This document shows positions 314 through 37,582 of a stretch of 64,000 bases of DNA, piece by piece (position 1 is the first letter of the stretch; each line of letters begins with the position of its first letter). The DNA is from Candidatus Doudnabacteria bacterium (GTDB lineage Bacteria; Patescibacteriota; Doudnabacteria; UBA920), in the NCBI GenBank assembly GCA_016218585.1, contig JACRDK010000025.1:27637-91636 (forward strand), written 5' to 3'. Made by a program: the position numbers and the translations under genes. The notes below the pieces were generated by a model, which saw only the letters and a program-made list of their open reading frames with translations, did not search any database and had not been told where the DNA came from.

Positions 314-404
314 AAAACTAAATAATTATAGCTATTTTTGACTATTTTGGCAATGCTTATACACAAATTAAAACCCGCCTCAATGGGCGGGAGTTTTGTT
401 GAAT

Positions 405-480
405 TGGTGGACCCTACCGGATTTGAACCGGTCGCCTCTTCCATGCCATGGAAGCGCTCTACCAAATGAGCTAAGGGCCC
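405..480 (-). tRNA. tRNA-Ala (anticodon GGC)
   Basis: Cloverleaf with the G3:U70 Ala identity pair, anticodon loop ATGGCAT, T-loop TTCAAAT, and CCA encoded. A terminator hairpin lies at 371-399. Confidence 0.85.
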
Positions 481-486
481 AAAATA
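454..486. repeat. 33-nt direct repeat, copy 1. Covers the tRNA-Ala 5' half plus 6 nt of leader.
   Basis: gcgctctaccaaatgagctaagggcccaaaata is identical to 765-797. Confidence 0.9.
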
Positions 487-731
487 ATTTGCTCTTGCAC
501 TATTTTCTTAATAATTTCTTTGTTTTTATAATTTTTTAGCCTCAATTCTGTCTGCACCGCTTCTTCTCTTGATGAATACTGTTGTTTAAAAACTAGCCTC
601 CAAGGAATTCCATATTTAATGGATTTTGTCTTTCCTGAATTATGCTCAATAACTCTGTTTTCAGGATAGGCTGAAGACCCTATATAAAACCTACCATTTT
701 CATTTTGCAATATATAAACCCAGCAAATCAT
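471..731 (-). CDS. Small GIY-YIG nuclease domain protein (YhbQ/UPF0213-like). Start taken at the internal Met (MICWVYILQ...). The C-terminus overlaps the tRNA-Ala 5' end.
   Basis: Motif GRFYIGSSAYPENRVIEHNSG is the canonical GIY-YIG signature. The ~87-aa size is typical of the family. Confidence 0.75.
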   Translation of the reverse strand: MICWVYILQNENGRFYIGSSAYPENRVIEHNSGKTKSIKYGIPWRLVFKQQYSSREEAVQTELRLKNYKNKEIIKKIVQEQIILGP

Positions 732-764
732 ATAGTTCCTGTCGCCTCCCCGATGTACATCGGG

Positions 765-797
765 GCGCTCTACCAAATGAGCTAAGGGCCCAAAATA
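765..797. repeat. 33-nt direct repeat, copy 2. An orphan tRNA-Ala 5' half followed by the hairpin ccccgatgtacatcgggg, located upstream of the GIY-YIG gene.
   Basis: Exact 33/33 match to 454-486. The copies diverge immediately outside the repeat. Confidence 0.9.
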
Positions 798-841
798 TAT
801 GCCTTGATATTCTACATCATATTTCGTTTTCTTTCAATCCC

Positions 842-2865: not shown

Positions 2866-3342
2866 TTATTTATGGTATTCTTTGCCGGCCAAGATTGTAC
2901 AAGCTCTATAAATTTGTTCTTCTAAAAGAATCCTTGCCATATTATGAGGGAAAGTAAGAGGGGACAAAGAAATTGAATAATTGGAATAACTTTTTAAACT
3001 AGAATGCAGCCCAACACCGCTGCCAATTACAAAAATTAATTCTTTGCCCAAGCCGCCAGTTCTTTCTAAAAATGTTGCAAAATCAGGAGAATTTCTTAAA
3101 GTTCCTTTTTCTTCAAGCAAAATAACTATTCCATTTTCCGGCAATTGCTTAATTATTTTTTCCGCTTCTTGTTCTTTAATTTTTTCTATTTCCTGATTTT
3201 TACCATAGCCAATTTCGGGTAATTCAATTACCTTAATTTTAGCAAAAGGGGATAAGCGCTTTAAATATTCCGCTTCCAATTCTTTGTAAGCTGATTCCTT
3301 AAATTTTCCTAAAACAATAATCTTTATTTTAAACATATTCAA
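2866..3342 (-). CDS. rlmH: 23S rRNA (pseudouridine1915-N3)-methyltransferase RlmH (SPOUT)
   Basis: ~155-aa SPOUT protein. The C-terminal LSLSPLTFPHNMARILLEEQIYRA is characteristic of RlmH/YbeA. Confidence 0.8.
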   Translation of the reverse strand: MNMFKIKIIVLGKFKESAYKELEAEYLKRLSPFAKIKVIELPEIGYGKNQEIEKIKEQEAEKIIKQLPENGIVILLEEKGTLRNSPDFATFLERTGGLGKELIFVIGSGVGLHSSLKSYSNYSISLSPLTFPHNMARILLEEQIYRACTILAGKEYHK

Positions 3343-3373
3343 ATAATACTACTGAATGCTCAATTTGAGCAAA

Positions 3374-3412
3374 TTAAAAAACAGCCTTCCGGTAAAGAAG
3401 GCTGTTTTTTAA
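3374..3412. terminator. Bidirectional rho-independent terminator
   Basis: Hairpin aacagccttccggtaaagaaggctgtt flanked by an A-run and a T-run. Confidence 0.75.
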
Positions 3413-3420
3413 TTTAGGAA

Positions 3421-6400
3421 CTACTTTTTAAACAAAGCTCCGGCCTGCGCCCAATTATCTGTCTTGGAAAGAGATAAGGTAGCGGCGACTGCGGAAGTTG
3501 TGGTTTGAATTTTGTAAGCCATAGCTAAAGGTTGATAGGTGCTGGCATTTTCATTTGTTACCGCAACCAGAGTAAACCCTGATCCTGCGCTGGTAACTTC
3601 GGTGTTGTCATGAGTACCCGCGGAAATTACCAGTTCGCCAGTTGCTACAGGAGTCATATTGCCGGAGGAAGGAGTGGAGCTGCGGCCAGTTGCGCCTGCT
3701 GTTTTGTCTAATGGCGCAGAAGTATTGGCCCCGGTAAATTCCGCAACAATAATTGAAAGCTCGCTGCCGCCGGATGCGGTTTTAAAAGTGATTGTATCGC
3801 TGCCGCCGGCAACATTTTTTGCGTAGTAAATTCCAGTATAAGCTCCGCCGGAAGTTTTTCTGGTAGTTCCGGCAAGGGTATATACATTACCAAGGCTGTC
3901 TGTGATTGCGGTGGCTGCTGGCGCGCTGGGCCAGCTGGAAATTGCTACTACAATTAAATTCCCGGCAGTAACTGGCGATGCTAAAGCAACAGTGGCCTGT
4001 GAAGTATTTAGTACATTATTTGAGCCTTTTTGTACCAGCGTTATTGAAGTTGGGGCTGTGTTTGAAACTGTAACATTTACAGTGGCGCTGGTGCCAACAT
4101 TGCCAGCCAGGTCATAGGCCTTGGCAATAATCGCATGAGATGCGTTATTGGACTGAGTAGTGTCATAAGACCATGCATACGGGGTGGAGGTATCTGTAGC
4201 CTTTAAAACTCCATCCAGATAAAATTCAACTCTAACTACACCCACATTATCCGAGGCTGATGCCGCAACATTAACGGTACCGGAAACAGCTGCTCCGTCT
4301 GTAGGGGAAGTAATGCTAACTATTGGGGCAGTGGCATCCGGAGCACTTGCAGTGGTGAATGTAAAATCTCCCGAGGCCGCAAGATTGCCCGCCGCGTCTT
4401 TTGACCTAACCCGAAAATGATAGGTTGTTGCGGCTGATAATCCGCTCAACAAAACAGAGTGAGAAACTGTAAGGTTTGTGTCTAGCGATGAAAGAGTGCC
4501 ATAACTTATTGTTGGCCCAAATTCTACCTGAGAATCAGAATTTTCATTAGTGGCCCAGGCAATTGTTGCTTGGGCAACGATTATTGAAGAAGAGGCAACG
4601 GAAGAAATTACCGGAGGTGTTACGTCTGCCTGGGTCTGCGTAGTTGCGCTTGCCGGATTTGACTGTGCAGAGTAATTTCCGGCTGCGTCAAAAGCGTCTA
4701 CCATGTAAGAATAAGTGGTTCCGGAATTTAAGCCTGAGTTGTTATAACTTGCTGATGTTGTAGTTGCAATTTGTACGCCATTTCTGTACACACGATAACC
4801 GACAACGCCTACGTTATCTGTAGCAGCTGTCCAAGTCAAACTTATTGTGGATACAGAGGTTGCGGTCGCAATAAGATTGGTTGGAACCGTTGGCGCAGTT
4901 GTGTCAGGCGTTATTGTTCCCACAGTAACCGCCACATCAACCCAATAATTTGTCGCCATATAAGACGATGACGGGAACACTCTGGAAGACCCATATGCAT
5001 ACAGGCCGGCATTTACCGGAGCGTGAAGGGGAGAGTTATCATACTTCACGGTGAAATAATTTTTATCAAACGCATAGTGAGCAGAAGGCGCATGGTAAGA
5101 AACAACATAAGTTGTGCCTGCGGTAATTGCTACTGGCGAAGACAGGGTAACTGTTTGCCAGCCTGAAGAAGTTTCATTGCTGGCAGTGCCGCTTGCTAAA
5201 AGAGTGCCACTGTTGCTCCACAAAGCAACCGTATGGGTTCCGGTGTTTGCCGCAGACTTATAAAATTTTATAGCTGTAACTTGTCCGGCAAAATCAGAAG
5301 TAAACTTTATGCCCAATTCAACCGAACTGTCTGTACCAACATCAGCCACAGTTGGAACATTAGAACCAAACAGTGTATAAGTTTGGGAGGCGCTGGCTAA
5401 AGTGGATGTAGCAAAGCCGGCAGACAGCGCGGAATAATTTCCAGAAGCGTCAAAAGCGCTTACGTTATAGGTATAAGCGGTACTAGCCGAAAGACCGGTA
5501 TTGCTATAACTTAACGCTGTTGTGGTGGCAATTTGCACACCGCCGCGGAACAATTTATAACCCGCTACGCCGACATTGTCGGTAGAAGCTGACCAGGATA
5601 AATTAATTGAAGAGGAGGTAACATTCGTAGCGGTTAACCCTGTTGGAACAGACGGCGCTGATAAATCTGGATTTAAAGTTGTCGCCGAAACGCTGCCAGA
5701 TTGAGCAGAAATATTTAATGATGCGTCGTAAGCCGCAACTGTATAGGCATACTGAGTTCCCGCTGCAAGTCCGCCATCGGCATAGTTAAGGGCTGTTGTA
5801 GTGGCGACTAAATTGCCGTCTCTAAAAATTTGATATCCGGCAACCCCCACGTTGTCGGTTGCCGCAGACCAAGACAAATTAATTACCGCAGCGGAAACCG
5901 GTTGAGCAGTTAGGTTTGCCGGAATAGATGGAGCTTCTATGTCTGGACTAAACGTGGTCGCGTTTGAAGCTGTCGACTGCGCTGAAGAATTACCAGCTGC
6001 ATCGTAAGCGGATACGGTATAGCTATACTGCGTGCCAGCAGAGAGATTCATATCTGCAAAATTGGTTATTGTCGTGGTGGCAATTTGCAAGCCATCGCGA
6101 AAAACTTTGTAACCCGCAACCGAAACATTGTCGGTACTAGCAGACCATGACAGATTAATTTGAGTAGTAGACACAGGCGAAGCTGAAAGATTTGTCGGAA
6201 CTGAGGGACTGGTGGTGTCAGGGGCATTATTTAAAACTATCGCTTTATAGTACAGGGTGGCATGATGATCATATCCGGCTGTGCCGTCATTTTCATCGTA
6301 AAAAAGCACGTCGATAATTCCCGGGTTATTATCACGCAAGGGATCAAAACGCACTGAGGCAGAACCGTCTAATCCGGGAGTTCCGGCTGTAGTATTGGTG

Positions 6401-13118: not shown

Positions 13119-14006
13119 TTGCTTTTTATTTGGAATTTGGAATTTGATATTTGGAATTTAAAATTGTATTACTACATCCTCGATCAAAACGGATTACCCA
13201 TAGAAAAATTTGAAAAGCTGCAAACTGAGCTGCAAGGTTTGTTGGCGGAATTTAAAATTGCCGGGGAAACAGCCCGAGTCACACCGCTCCGCTCGGTTCA
13301 AGATTTAGTAGACACTGCCAGCCAGCGCGGAGCCAAAACTTTGGTTGCTTGCGGCACCGACGACACTTTTAATATGATGCTAGCAGCCCTAAAGGGGAGA
13401 GATTTTACCCTGGCCTATATTCCATTTGAGGAAGATTCTGTGCTGGCCAAAATTTTAGGAGTAGATTCCGTATATTCCGGAGTAAAAACAGTGGCCGGGC
13501 GGCGCATTGAAAAAATAGATCTGGCCAAAATTTATGACAACTATTTTATTAGCTACCTGGAATTCGGAGTTATGTCACACCGCTTAAAAAACACAGGGCT
13601 TTGGCAAAGCTTAAAATTACTTTCTTCCGAGGCCCGCAGCTTTACCATCAGGGTAGACGACTCTTACAACGTTACTATTAACGGCTTAGGGGGGTTGGTT
13701 GCAAACATACGCGCCGCTTCAAGCAAAGACGAAAAAATCGGCAACCCAACCGATGGAAACTTAGACCTGCTAATTTTGGAAAAATTAAATAAACTGCAAA
13801 TTATGACGTATCGCGGCGATATTGCGCAAGGAAGTTTGGAAAAAGTTCCAAATGCCACAGTCATAAAATGCAAAAAAATCCAATTCCTTGAGCCTCGCGG
13901 CTTTAACCTAACAATGCTCGGCCGCGTGGTTGCAAAATTCCCTGCCACAGTAGAAATAATCCCTCAGCGCCTGCGAATGATAGTCGGCAAAAACCGAACT
14001 TTTTAA
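13119..14006 (+). CDS. Diacylglycerol/lipid kinase catalytic-domain protein (DAGK_cat, YegS-like)
   Basis: LVACGTDDTFNMMLAAL resembles the GGDGT motif region. ~290-aa size fits. The true start is uncertain. Confidence 0.5.
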   Translation: MLFIWNLEFDIWNLKLYYYILDQNGLPIEKFEKLQTELQGLLAEFKIAGETARVTPLRSVQDLVDTASQRGAKTLVACGTDDTFNMMLAALKGRDFTLAYIPFEEDSVLAKILGVDSVYSGVKTVAGRRIEKIDLAKIYDNYFISYLEFGVMSHRLKNTGLWQSLKLLSSEARSFTIRVDDSYNVTINGLGGLVANIRAASSKDEKIGNPTDGNLDLLILEKLNKLQIMTYRGDIAQGSLEKVPNATVIKCKKIQFLEPRGFNLTMLGRVVAKFPATVEIIPQRLRMIVGKNRTF

Positions 14007-14061
14007 AAATCACGGATTACGCCTGCCTGCAGGCAGGAATAAAAAACAGATAACTCAGGTG

Positions 14062-26048: not shown

Positions 26049-26122
26049 GCGGCTATGGTTCAATGGTAGAACTTCTCCTTGCCATGGAGAGGATAGGGGT
26101 TCGATTCCCCTTAGCCGCTCCA
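26049..26122 (+). tRNA. tRNA-Gly (anticodon GCC)
   Basis: Anticodon loop TTGCCAT, T-loop TTCGATT, discriminator U, and CCA encoded. Confidence 0.85.
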
Positions 26123-26169: not shown

Positions 26170-26282
26170 ATAAGGATAGATGAGAAACCCAGGCTCGACT
26201 AAAAGTCCGCCATAGCTTTAGCGACGGCGGATTCCCCTCGAAGATTCCGACTTCATGTCGGGGTTAGCCGCTCCACAAAAAA
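26170..26282 (+). other. Structured ~110-nt element ending in a tRNA-Gly 3'-half mimic (hairpin plus TTAGCCGCTCCA)
   Basis: The 3' end GGGGTTAGCCGCTCCA duplicates the tRNA-Gly T-stem and acceptor 3' strand. Internal hairpins gtccgcc/ggcggat and ccgac-ttcat-gtcgg. Followed by the terminator at 26275-26308. Confidence 0.4.
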
Positions 26283-37505: not shown

Positions 37506-37582
37506 TGGTGGGCGTGCCAGGATTCGAACCTGGGACCCTCAAGGTATAAGCTTGATGCTCTAACCAGCTGAGCTACACGCCC
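37506..37582 (-). tRNA. tRNA-Ile (anticodon TAT)
   Basis: Acceptor GGGCGTG/CACGCCC, anticodon stem TCAAG/CTTGA, loop CTTATAC, T-loop TTCGAAT, and CCA encoded. Confidence 0.75.

Follow-up and report, generated by a model that had tools for sequence, protein, structure and literature searches.

The window, which is the whole 64-kb stretch of DNA analysed, carries on its minus strand a promoter, a leader followed by positions 1-27 of tRNA-Ala, an 18-nt palindrome, an 86-aa GIY-YIG ORF, a complete tRNA-Ala(GGC) gene and a terminator, in that order. The individual features are listed below.

809..837, minus strand: sigma-70-like promoter, TTGAAA-17-TAGAAT, upstream of the dead copy of the tRNA
765..797, minus strand: upstream repeat, made up of the 6-nt leader TATTTT and tRNA-Ala positions 1-27 (acceptor 5' strand and D arm)
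748..765, minus strand: perfect 18-nt palindrome, CCCCGATGTACATCGGGG, termed the type A hairpin
738..747, minus strand: remnant of the variable loop and the 5' strand of the T stem
471..731, minus strand: 86-aa stand-alone GIY-YIG ORF, with ATG at 731-729 and stop codon TAG at 473-471
454..486, minus strand: downstream repeat, made up of the leader TATTTT and tRNA positions 1-27, identical to 765-797 at 33 of 33 nt
405..480, minus strand: intact tRNA-Ala(GGC) with G3:U70 and an encoded CCA (ARAGORN; Rfam, 61.9 bits)
374..391, minus strand: intrinsic terminator, CCCGCCCATTGAGGCGGG followed by TTTTAATTT

The longest exact repeat was 33 nt long (TATTTTGGGCCCTTAGCTCATTTGGTAGAGCGC, at 765-797 and 454-486), confirming the orphan tRNA-Ala 5' half that the preliminary description had reported as identical to the real gene; the hairpin, the small GIY-YIG ORF, the complete tRNA-Ala(GGC) overlapping the ORF stop and the terminator were all found as described there. 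The downstream repeat doubles as the coding end of the ORF (I-L-G-P-stop), the stop codon TAG being U8-A9-G10 of the downstream tRNA-Ala. Past the palindrome, similarity to the tRNA picks up again at tRNA positions 44-53 (AGGCGACAGG versus AGGCGACCGG), and the upstream piece is therefore a copy of the tRNA truncated in the T stem, here called the dead copy. Its anticodon arm (17 nt, positions 27-43) has been swapped exactly for the 18-nt palindrome, and the likely Shine-Dalgarno sequence of the ORF, AGGA (740-737), falls within the variable-loop/T-stem remnant.

The dead copy was the sole partial tRNA copy in the 64-kb window (blastn-short, E 2e-10), which also contained a single type A hairpin. 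The search for further tRNA half-duplications that had been proposed thus found none elsewhere in the window, and many beside related ORFs in other genomes. A possible second relic 3' of tRNA-Gly(GCC) scored no better than shuffled controls, Rfam gave no match for the dead copy or the hairpin, and the RNA fold of the 5' region was not significant (z = -1.8). Two other identities of the upstream copy were considered and rejected: a tRNA with a giant intron, in which the upstream 5' part would be spliced to the downstream 3' part, given that the T-stem remnant is mismatched and decaying in the related locus L001 and that an intact tRNA is present; and a quadruplet-decoding tRNA with an 8-nt loop, given that the copy lacks the T arm and the 3' acceptor strand.

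The insert measures ~311 bp, and the GIY-YIG gene is its only ORF; no integrase or transposase was found in it. The ORF matched the Pfam GIY-YIG family PF01541 (48.4 bits versus a cut-off of 22.6, E 1.2e-12), its only domain, and the catalytic residues were conserved, with Y6, Y16, G18, R26, E29, H30, N31 and E62 invariant among nine homologues. A separate DNA-binding domain, as in enzymes of the I-TevI/SegB type, was absent from the 86-aa ORF, which scored 16.5 bits with TIGR01453 (group I intron endonuclease; cut-off 56.05). The best PDB matches were the UPF0213 proteins 1ZG2 (E 3e-6) and 1YWL (E 1e-5), and the single minimal domain resembles those of bacterial Slx1-like/UPF0213 stand-alone GIY-YIG proteins. 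A weak match to PHROG 314 ('homing endonuclease') was obtained (E 4e-4), and PADLOC gave no defence-system match at the locus. Exact-protein look-up returned no match for the ORF, and a record 100% identical to the protein was recovered by homologue search. The dN/dS ratio of the ORF against that of L001 was 0.16, within the range of 0.08-0.22 for comparisons in the family (dS being saturated in the window's clade), and the ORF is under purifying selection.

Related genomes had been suggested as a place to look for an empty tRNA-Ala(GGC) site, and such sites are present. The syntenic loci L085-L098 (SPOUT, Wzy_C, tRNA-Arg, a 119-aa gene, tRNA-Ala) carry neither the ORF nor the hairpin, tRNA-Ala(GGC) coming straight after the same upstream gene; there is thus presence/absence polymorphism at a conserved target site, as is looked for in homing endonucleases. 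The promoter and leader of L085 are the same as those of the window, and the leader, TAGAATATCAAGGCA(A/T)T(T/A)ATTTT, lies directly before the tRNA in L085 and before the dead copy in L001 and L070. Judging from these sequences, the promoter at 809..837 is the native tRNA-Ala promoter, now upstream of the dead copy. The earlier suggestion of a tRNA being rebuilt was therefore half right: the downstream tRNA is intact and is the working gene, and it is the dead copy that occupies the place of the original start.

L001 and L070 have the same arrangement as the window. Identity among the three ORFs is down to 59-65% and dS is saturated, so the perfect repeat is old and not a fresh target-site duplication. 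Dead copies nevertheless match their own tRNA closely (mean of 0.75 mismatches, versus 5.06 against same-anticodon tRNAs of other loci), the own tRNA being the closer match in 51 of 52 cases. L001 has a lineage-specific C6>T6 change and L003 a G>A change in the T stem, each of them present in both copies. That an old repeat still matches its own tRNA indicates either concerted evolution or constraint. The Wzy_C proteins of the filled loci (window and L070) are 68% identical and group apart from those of the empty loci (44-52%), so that a single ancient gain suffices, and the cassette looks old and vertically inherited in the window's lineage. Several independent gains had been argued from the 119-aa neighbour protein; this was dropped when Wzy_C gave a conflicting order.

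Relatives of the ORF were sought in 223 candidate stretches from GTDB species genomes, 205 of which encoded them; 80 loci were fetched, and the survey set comprised 84 loci with 94 ORFs. A co-oriented tRNA gene was directly adjacent in 76 of the 84 loci, and the tRNA started between -25 and +15 nt from the ORF end for 52 of the 94 ORFs. For 30 ORFs the stop codon lay inside the tRNA, and 13 of these had it at U8A9G10, like the ORF of the window. Among the 67 ORFs with a downstream tRNA, 57 had an upstream copy of tRNA nt 1-21 (39 perfect), compared with none of 63 control windows. These upstream copies were nearly always broken by a GC-rich palindrome. The neighbouring tRNAs represented at least 15 different isoacceptors in many phyla; the same anatomy thus recurs beside many different tRNAs over many phyla. 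Together with the empty sites, this bears out the proposal of a nuclease cassette tied to tRNA genes, and it disposes of the contrary case, a housekeeping paralogue with no association to repeats, since the relatives carry the same partial-tRNA duplication.

The geometry of the duplication varied between clades. Its length ranged from about 22 nt to the full tRNA, the part duplicated was the 5' end here and the 3' part in the Ser clade, and the ORF junctions fell at defined tRNA positions, namely the T stem (clade A), the anticodon loop (clade B) and the T arm (Ser clade). A classical target-site duplication from a recent insertion, the form in which the repeat had first been read, does not describe this arrangement: the repeat spans tRNA positions -6 to about +53, is interrupted by the hairpin, is variable in length and is old. 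Protein pairs from different phyla were 73-82% identical, compared with 59-65% within the window's own clade. Tandem arrays were found in L023, L037, L040, L044, L060 and L067, and 3' copies bearing the hairpin, which start 6-8 nt upstream of it, lay downstream in L003, L006 and L070. Decayed ORFs and ORF-less, hairpin-marked tRNA fragments were also present among the relatives. Within the reach of HMMER the family comprised 2,653 clusters at 50% identity. No relatives were found in the plasmid search, and the viral-contig and phage searches gave one weak match each, so that no transfer vector is evident.

A GC-rich palindrome lay within 130 nt upstream of 73 of the 94 ORFs. Type A (NCCCGATG-NN-CATCGGGN) takes the place of the anticodon arm at tRNA-Ala, tRNA-Gly and tRNA-Ile loci of Patescibacteria (CPR), and type B (CCTGCCTGCCGGCAGGCAGG) forms a clean insertion between raw positions 22 and 23 of tRNA-Arg and tRNA-Met, further type B positions being 9 and 10, 12 and 13, 39 and 40, and 57 and 58. 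Type A hairpins were 97.4% paired, with double-sided changes at three pairs and a covariation score above 500 of 500 shuffles; the core G5A6T7/A12T13C14 (CGAT/ATCG) was invariant and the outer pairs covaried. A neighbour-joining tree of the proteins split by hairpin type and tRNA isotype. Hairpins were present too in copies followed by no ORF. Metagenome contigs scanned for CCCGATGNNCATCGGG alone yielded mostly random matches in GC-rich DNA and were uninformative; among the 83 matches listed, three were near a tRNA and one was near a GIY-YIG ORF.

Among known systems, the Ssn nucleases, exemplified by SsnA of Neisseria meningitidis (CDD cd10448), are small single-domain GIY-YIG enzymes that bind flanking hairpin repeats and cut ssDNA upstream (PMC11893778). 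Ssn proteins and the present family alike are small and single-domain and lack a DNA-binding domain, the 86-aa ORF falling below the 150-aa size limit applied to Ssn-type proteins. Inverted repeats of 20-50 nt, which form hairpins and co-evolve with the protein, flank the Ssn genes in an IS-like repeat-gene-repeat layout (PMC11893778), and here the frequency of upstream palindromes, their tracking of protein clades and the covariation of their stems are of the same kind. In contrast to Ssn, the hairpin sequences differ and sit within tRNA gene copies at defined tRNA positions, and the repeats are not dispersed in hundreds of copies, the 64-kb window holding one type A hairpin. The Ssn SRM motif, HGTCWYN(0-2)YYVSBRHN(0-5)WNVSBRGN(0-2)RNCYNB, was found in none of the 94 ORF neighbourhoods (≤500 nt of the gene), the same expression matching the NTS control, and tRNAs are not mentioned in the Ssn paper (PMC11893778). 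The system is thus best read as a stand-alone nuclease with a cognate hairpin that is analogous to Ssn, the likeness being one of layout.

SegB, a free-standing GIY-YIG homing endonuclease among the tRNA genes of phages T4 and T6, recognizes a T-loop motif (PMC2330249) and drives tandem amplification of tRNA plus segB (PMC13096335). The resemblance is that a GIY-YIG gene sits amid tRNA genes, that conserved tRNA sequence sets the target, that the gene homes together with the tRNA DNA beside it, and that tRNA and nuclease gene are amplified in tandem, the 3' end of the ORF joining the 5' end of the tRNA. SegB differs in being multi-domain and phage-borne, not chromosomal, and in lacking a hairpin or a hairpin-marked partial tRNA copy. 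Collections of phages and viruses contain next to nothing of the present family. The closest solved relatives, the bacterial Slx1-like/UPF0213 proteins BH0048 (1ZG2) and EF2693 (1YWL), share the minimal GIY-YIG domain of ~90-100 aa (PMC1564403). UPF0213 proteins are regarded as vertically inherited genes of repair or unknown function, and neither nesting in tRNA genes nor a cognate hairpin has been described for them. Integrase islands also use a tRNA gene as their site and keep it functional by partial duplication, but they duplicate the 3' part, encode a tyrosine integrase and are kilobases long, unlike the ~0.3 kb, integrase-free insert seen here. In fungal mitochondria, free-standing GIY-YIG ORFs come with a second copy of one end of the host gene, as in the Allomyces atp6 hybrid gene; there too a nuclease ORF lies in an essential gene with a restoring partial copy, the displaced fragment being a pseudogene. 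The host gene in that case is protein-coding and organellar, an in-frame fusion supplies the restoring 3' end, and a conserved hairpin is lacking.

On balance, and with moderate confidence, the locus is regarded as belonging to a widespread class of selfish cassettes lodged in tRNA genes. The cassette is best read as a hairpin plus a gene for a minimal, stand-alone Slx1/UPF0213-like GIY-YIG protein, set between a dead copy and a working tRNA; we infer nuclease activity of the protein and mobility of the cassette. No published description of small GIY-YIG cassettes nested in tRNA genes was found in a literature search, and the class is apparently undescribed.

In the mechanism that we propose, the dead copy, hairpin, ORF and tRNA would form one transcript from the tRNA promoter, as no promoter-like site turned up in a scan between the ORF and the tRNA that it overlaps. 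Silencing of the cassette would then shut off the tRNA as well. By cutting at the 5' end of the tRNA, RNase P would remove the stop codon of the ORF, so that a single transcript would give either the complete protein or the mature tRNA. By analogy with Ssn, the hairpin may be the cognate recognition element of the nuclease in single-stranded nucleic acid. Nicks or breaks beside it, in DNA homologous to the tRNA, could be mended from the intact tRNA copy, a gene conversion that would keep the repeat identical and could also yield the tandem arrays of partial tRNA and ORF and the 5'-truncated hairpin copies. Following transfer of DNA, repair of this kind could also carry the cassette over to an empty tRNA allele, with the highly conserved tRNA sequence providing homology arms, which would amount to homing-like spread. 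The 'duplication' would thus consist of the displaced original 5' part and a restoring copy, and would not be the footprint of a staggered cut. Several points caution against a selfish cassette. The intact tRNA is kept in cis, only the dead copy being disrupted by the hairpin, so that an enzyme cutting tRNA genes would leave the allele non-immune; and a cut at the hairpin would be a break in the donor, for which simple models favour loss over spread. The apparent age and vertical inheritance of the cassette in the window's lineage, the failure to find a transfer vector, the absence of the SRM motif and the chance that the hairpin is instead an RNA-level element count against it too.

More tentatively, the enzyme may act on single-stranded, cloverleaf-folded tRNA-gene DNA, as part of a new mobile system that parasitizes tRNA genes in many phyla. 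It would then write or propagate the 18-20-nt hairpin at stem/loop boundaries of redundant tRNA copies (between positions 22 and 23, 39 and 40, or 57 and 58, or by exact swap of the anticodon arm) and drive the partial tRNA duplications, a recombination-dependent insertion that would require neither transposase nor integrase.

A classical dsDNA homing endonuclease of the SegB/I-TevI kind, which would cut intact tRNA genes, possibly close to the ORF junctions at the T loop or anticodon loop, and whose cassette would enter by break repair, is considered doubtful. The defined positions of these junctions, the empty sites, the T-psi-C motif of tRNA genes that SegB recognizes (PMC2330249) and the PHROG 314 match are all consistent with such an enzyme, and dead copies with the host's own sequence would be expected from break repair of a resident gene. 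The palindrome would then merely break up the repeat, shielding it from deletion or the dead copy from cleavage, which leaves its conservation across phyla and its co-variation with protein clade unexplained. An 86-aa protein that lacks a DNA-binding domain, scores 16.5 bits against a TIGR01453 cut-off of 56 and has Slx1-like UPF0213 proteins, not homing enzymes, as its nearest solved relatives also argues against this explanation, as does the intact, cleavable tRNA still in cis.

It is improbable that the ORF is a resident, non-mobile gene with a host role in tRNA/RNA metabolism or DNA repair, co-transcribed with tRNAs and flanked by partial copies from ordinary local tandem duplication. The hairpin is found 12-25 nt ahead of the start codon in most loci, adjacent to the Shine-Dalgarno sequence, and would in this reading be an RNA-level element such as a 5'-UTR operator, stabilizer or processing site; G-U wobble pairs in its sense strand fit the same explanation. 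So do the purifying selection and ancient upkeep in the clade of the window, L001 and L070, the fusion of bacterial Slx1-like proteins to a TrmH-like tRNA methyltransferase (PMC1564403), and the outcome of the plasmid and phage searches. A resident gene is hard to reconcile, however, with absence from related genomes at the same syntenic site, with neighbours of at least 15 different isoacceptors, with protein identity that is higher across phyla than within the window's clade, and with hairpins in copies lacking a following ORF. Selfish DNA typically leaves tandem arrays, decayed ORFs and tRNA fragments that bear a hairpin but have no ORF.

Where a direct repeat flanks a foreign ORF at a tRNA gene, a classic integration site, an att or target-site duplication left by an integrase-type island or a transposon might be suspected, but this reading, like that of chance or an assembly artefact, is effectively refuted, as the ~311-bp insert encodes the GIY-YIG protein alone, with no integrase or transposase, the 5' end and not the 3' end is duplicated, in an interrupted repeat of variable length, and the architecture recurs in dozens of independent assemblies.

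The selfish, tRNA-nested cassette, if true, would add to bacterial genomes a class of element that is widespread but has so far escaped annotation, hidden in tRNA loci under the mere label 'GIY-YIG nuclease family protein'. Genome annotation is affected: tRNA copies disrupted by a hairpin go undetected or are called wrongly, ORF predictions extend too far, into the dead tRNA copy, and many stop codons lie inside tRNAs. The pairing of a small nuclease with a cognate hairpin, known from Ssn, would be extended to new specificities, Ssn-type enzymes being of biotechnological interest as ssDNA cutters. The minimal Slx1/UPF0213-like proteins of bacteria gain a genomic context, and with it a testable function, and the arrangement predicts that tRNA maturation and nuclease translation compete on a single transcript.

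All elements of the locus lie on the minus strand between positions 837 and 374, in a window of 41.6 % G+C. The 33-nt duplicate, hairpin, GIY-YIG ORF, overlapping intact tRNA-Ala and terminator named in the preliminary description were all found there.

837..809, minus strand: sigma-70-like promoter TTGAAA-17-TAGAAT
797..765, minus strand: 33-nt repeat, an exact copy of 486..454, comprising the 6-nt leader TATTTT and tRNA-Ala positions 1-27
765..748, minus strand: perfect palindrome CCCCGATGTACATCGGGG
747..738, minus strand: AGGCGACAGG, with one mismatch to tRNA positions 44-53 (AGGCGACCGG)
731..471, minus strand: 86-aa ORF with a clear Pfam GIY-YIG match
480..405, minus strand: intact tRNA-Ala(GGC)
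391..374, minus strand: intrinsic terminator

Residues U8-A9-G10 of the tRNA form the TAG stop codon of the ORF, whose product is 100 % identical to a protein from a Candidatus Doudnabacteria MAG (125-kb contig). The duplicate had been described as half a tRNA; its 33 nt are indeed exact, but the copy is longer than that, since the match to the tRNA resumes beyond the palindrome (positions 44-53). It is a tRNA-Ala copy cut off in the T stem, in which the 17-nt anticodon arm has been exchanged exactly for an 18-nt palindrome. This hairpin-marked ‘dead copy’ is the sole partial tRNA copy within the 64-kb window, which holds one GIY-YIG ORF only, that at tRNA-Ala. Mechanical ORF calling gave a 101-aa product (471-776) with a TTG start within the dead copy, and many database relatives are 100-125 aa long and match only from residue 25-40 onward, which suggests that automatic gene prediction routinely starts such ORFs too early, within the pseudo-tRNA and hairpin. 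Elsewhere in the window (37506-37582) there is a tRNA-Ile with the anticodon UAU, as opposed to the usual lysidine-modified CAU type.

The four fetched contigs of the nearest homologues in the database (48-65 % identity) all kept the order of tRNA-Ala 5' part, palindrome, ORF and tRNA-Ala(-like) copy; in each, the palindrome (NNCCGATG-NN-CATCGGNN) occupied the place of the anticodon arm and the downstream copy supplied the stop codon. Among GTDB species, each represented by one genome, a scan identified 205 relatives, and the loci of the best 80 were fetched (loci are numbered with the prefix L throughout). Hosts of these best 80 belonged to Patescibacteria, Bacteroidota (among them many cultured Flavobacterium species), Margulisiibacteriota, Neomarinimicrobiota, Omnitrophota, WOR-3, Stahlbacteria, Ignavibacteria, Chlorobiota and Lentisphaeria, with one Bacillota MAG. 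A co-oriented tRNA gene directly adjoined in 76 of 84 loci. Relative to the ORF end, the tRNA start lay between -25 and +15 nt in 52 of 94 cases, and the stop codon was inside the tRNA for 30 ORFs, including 13 at U8A9G10. Adjacent tRNAs included Arg (four anticodons), Ala, Gly, Ile, Ser, Pro, Met, Asp, Val and Phe. A copy of the first 21 nt of the tRNA was present at most 170 nt upstream of 57 of the 67 ORFs with a downstream tRNA (39 perfect), compared with none of 63 control windows; the layout of duplicated tRNA plus nuclease recurs beside many tRNAs and in many phyla. The family comprises 2,653 clusters at 50 % identity within HMMER reach, and essentially no members were found in viral contigs, phages or plasmids. 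Cross-phylum identities of 73-82 % (Lentisphaeria/Neomarinimicrobiota and WOR-3/Stahlbacteria), which exceed those within the window's own clade, suggest horizontal transfer, bearing in mind that the binning of MAGs can be misleading.

GC-rich palindromes were located within 130 nt upstream of 73 of the 94 ORFs and were mainly of two types. Type A (core CGATG-NN-CATCG) exactly replaces the anticodon arm in the tRNA-Ala, Gly and Ile copies of Patescibacteria (CPR). Type B (CCTGCCTGCCGGCAGGCAGG) is 20 nt long and cleanly inserted, with tRNA bases neither lost nor duplicated; it usually lies at raw positions 22/23, the D-loop/D-stem boundary of tRNA-Arg and tRNA-Met, and otherwise at 9/10, 12/13, 39/40 or 57/58, sometimes twice per copy. 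One tRNA-Arg(TCT) copy (L083, 2370-2700) carries type B palindromes at both 22/23 (D-loop/D-stem boundary) and 39/40 (anticodon arm, beside the canonical tRNA intron site); the copy has a truncated 5' acceptor strand but is otherwise identical in exon sequence. The neighbour-joining protein tree split by hairpin type and tRNA isotype, not simply by host. In type A hairpins 97.4 % of cells were paired, both sides had changed at three of eight pairs and the core was invariant; the covariation score exceeded 500 of 500 shuffles and all slid controls. A compensated C:G to T:A change (CCTGTC...GACAGG) was found in type B hairpins of one Flavobacterium subclade. A sequence-specific core, a covarying stem and protein-clade specificity together have the look of a cognate hairpin recognized by the protein.

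Two further hairpin sites were seen in the window. The palindrome CCTGCCTGCAGGCAGG (14022-14037), closely related to type B of Bacteroidota cassettes, sits 16 nt past the stop of the ORF at 13119-14006, with no tRNA or GIY-YIG gene near. The segment at 26200-26275 lies 3' of tRNA-Gly(GCC) (26049-26122) and the terminator of that gene. In it, two small hairpins (TCCGCC..GGCGGA and CCGACttcatGTCGG) are interspersed with GATTCCCCT and with 12 nt that exactly repeat the 3' end of the tRNA (TTAGCCGCTCCA), ahead of a second terminator. It is a possible 3' relic, marked by hairpins and lacking an ORF, but in gapped alignment it scored no better than shuffles.

Syntenic loci were located via the upstream 119-aa gene. 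Empty tRNA-Ala(GGC) sites in related genomes, proposed as a check in the preliminary description, were present: in L085-L098, tRNA-Ala(GGC) comes straight after the genes for a SPOUT methyltransferase, Wzy_C, tRNA-Arg(CCT) and the 119-aa protein, in that order, and ORF and hairpin are both absent. The sequence TAGAATATCAAGGCAATTATTTT preceding the tRNA in L085 is the promoter and leader found before the dead copy in the window and in the filled loci L001 and L070, so the dead copy occupies the original gene start. The three filled loci share the arrangement, though their ORFs are only 59-65 % identical; with dS about 1.6 or saturated, the arrangement is not recent as judged by divergence, and dN/dS was 0.16, denoting purifying selection on the ORF. 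Wzy_C identity placed the filled loci together, at 68 % between the window and L070 (both filled) and 44-52 % for empty loci, and one ancient gain would be enough to explain the filled/empty pattern. Two quite different tRNA-Ala(GGC) sequences occur at this syntenic site, one in L085, L092 and L096 and the other in the three filled loci and in L089, which is empty. This is a hint that the tRNA allele may move together with the cassette, or that repeat recombination removed the cassette from L089. L096, empty at tRNA-Ala, also has a weak, apparently degenerate GIY-YIG-like ORF (3310-3495, E 0.02) upstream of tRNA-Pro(CGG).

The post-hairpin segment has decayed across the window, L001 and L070 (AGGCGACAGG, AGGGGACATA and AGGCGAGGGG). 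The 5' copy stays identical to its own tRNA in all three, and the lineage-specific C6>T6 change of L001 is in both copies. Family-wide, dead copies had a mean of 0.75 mismatches to their own tRNA versus 5.06 to same-anticodon tRNAs elsewhere, the own tRNA being the closer match in 51 of 52 cases. On these comparisons the repeats show either concerted evolution or selection for identity. The exact repeat had first been likened to a target-site duplication; a fresh one cannot explain an old arrangement whose dead copies match their own tRNA. The clearest exception to this identity is L005 (1875-1925), where the 5' tRNA-Ala copy with the hairpin has many differences from the intact tRNA-Ala(GGC) next to it and may have been brought in from another tRNA or host.

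Several loci showed signs of local rearrangement. Tandem units of hairpin-marked tRNA copy and ORF ending in a tRNA were found in L023, L037, L040, L060 and L067, and the reverse order, a tRNA followed by units of ORF and marked copy, in L044; each array seen had exactly one hairpin-free tRNA copy. In each of L003, L006 and L070, partial 3' copies recur, starting 6-8 nt upstream of a type A hairpin. The layout is mirrored in a tRNA-Ser(TGA) clade (L035, 1900-2330; L036, 1900-2253): the intact tRNA is followed 4 nt on by the ORF and then by a hairpin-marked 3' part that begins in the T stem and carries TCCCGCC..GGCGGGA hairpins. These hairpins look like the core of the NTS repeat of Neisseria. 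ORF-less 5' copies, each bearing a type B palindrome, lie immediately upstream of intact tRNA-Pro(CGG) in L001 (790-890) and tRNA-Arg(CCT) in L006 (1345-1410); the GIY-YIG gene of these Patescibacteria (CPR) genomes belongs to the type A clade, at tRNA-Ala, so that two hairpin types meet in one locus.

Integrase islands and transposon footprints were rejected as the identity of the cassette, and the group I intron endonuclease model failed on the window protein. SegB likewise lives among tRNA genes and forms tandem tRNA-nuclease units (PMC2330249, PMC13096335), but it has a DNA-binding domain and a phage context, both of which the present protein lacks. Nearest by sequence are the bacterial Slx1-like UPF0213 proteins (1ZG2, 1YWL; PMC1564403), the window protein being a minimal stand-alone GIY-YIG domain. 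The most similar way of working, by analogy, would be that of the Ssn proteins; these are small GIY-YIG enzymes with a single domain, which bind a hairpin flanking their gene and cleave ssDNA immediately upstream (PMC11893778). The Ssn paper does not mention tRNA, and the present cassette is provisionally kept apart from that family (cd10448) on the absence of the published SRM motif (0 of 94 neighbourhoods). No description of a tRNA-nested small GIY-YIG architecture was found in the non-subscription literature searched, and an earlier one is possible.

The following mechanism is proposed. The unit is probably a single transcript from the promoter upstream of the dead copy, given that the ORF overlaps the tRNA; no promoter-like site was found between the two at the window locus. 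The cassette would have taken over the tRNA promoter, and the ORF would lose its stop codon when RNase P cuts at tRNA +1. By analogy with Ssn, the hairpin may be the nuclease's recognition site in single-stranded nucleic acid. Breaks beside it, within tRNA-homologous DNA, would be repaired from the intact tRNA, which would yield the homogenized repeats, the arrays and the truncated copies starting just 5' of the hairpin. Finally, tRNA sequence could serve as homology arms for spread to empty alleles; the resident 5' part would become the dead copy, and a complete tRNA would be restored downstream. The proposal is weakest on immunity and directionality: the intact tRNA stays in cis, and a break in the donor alone does not promote spread. 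We favour this composite of four steps only slightly over its being wrong. That the locus is a selfish tRNA-nested nuclease cassette and not a housekeeping gene we hold with good confidence; the suggestion of a mobile nuclease cassette targeting tRNA genes is upheld in substance. More widely, the finding leads to a variant of selfish nuclease elements that is widespread and apparently undescribed.
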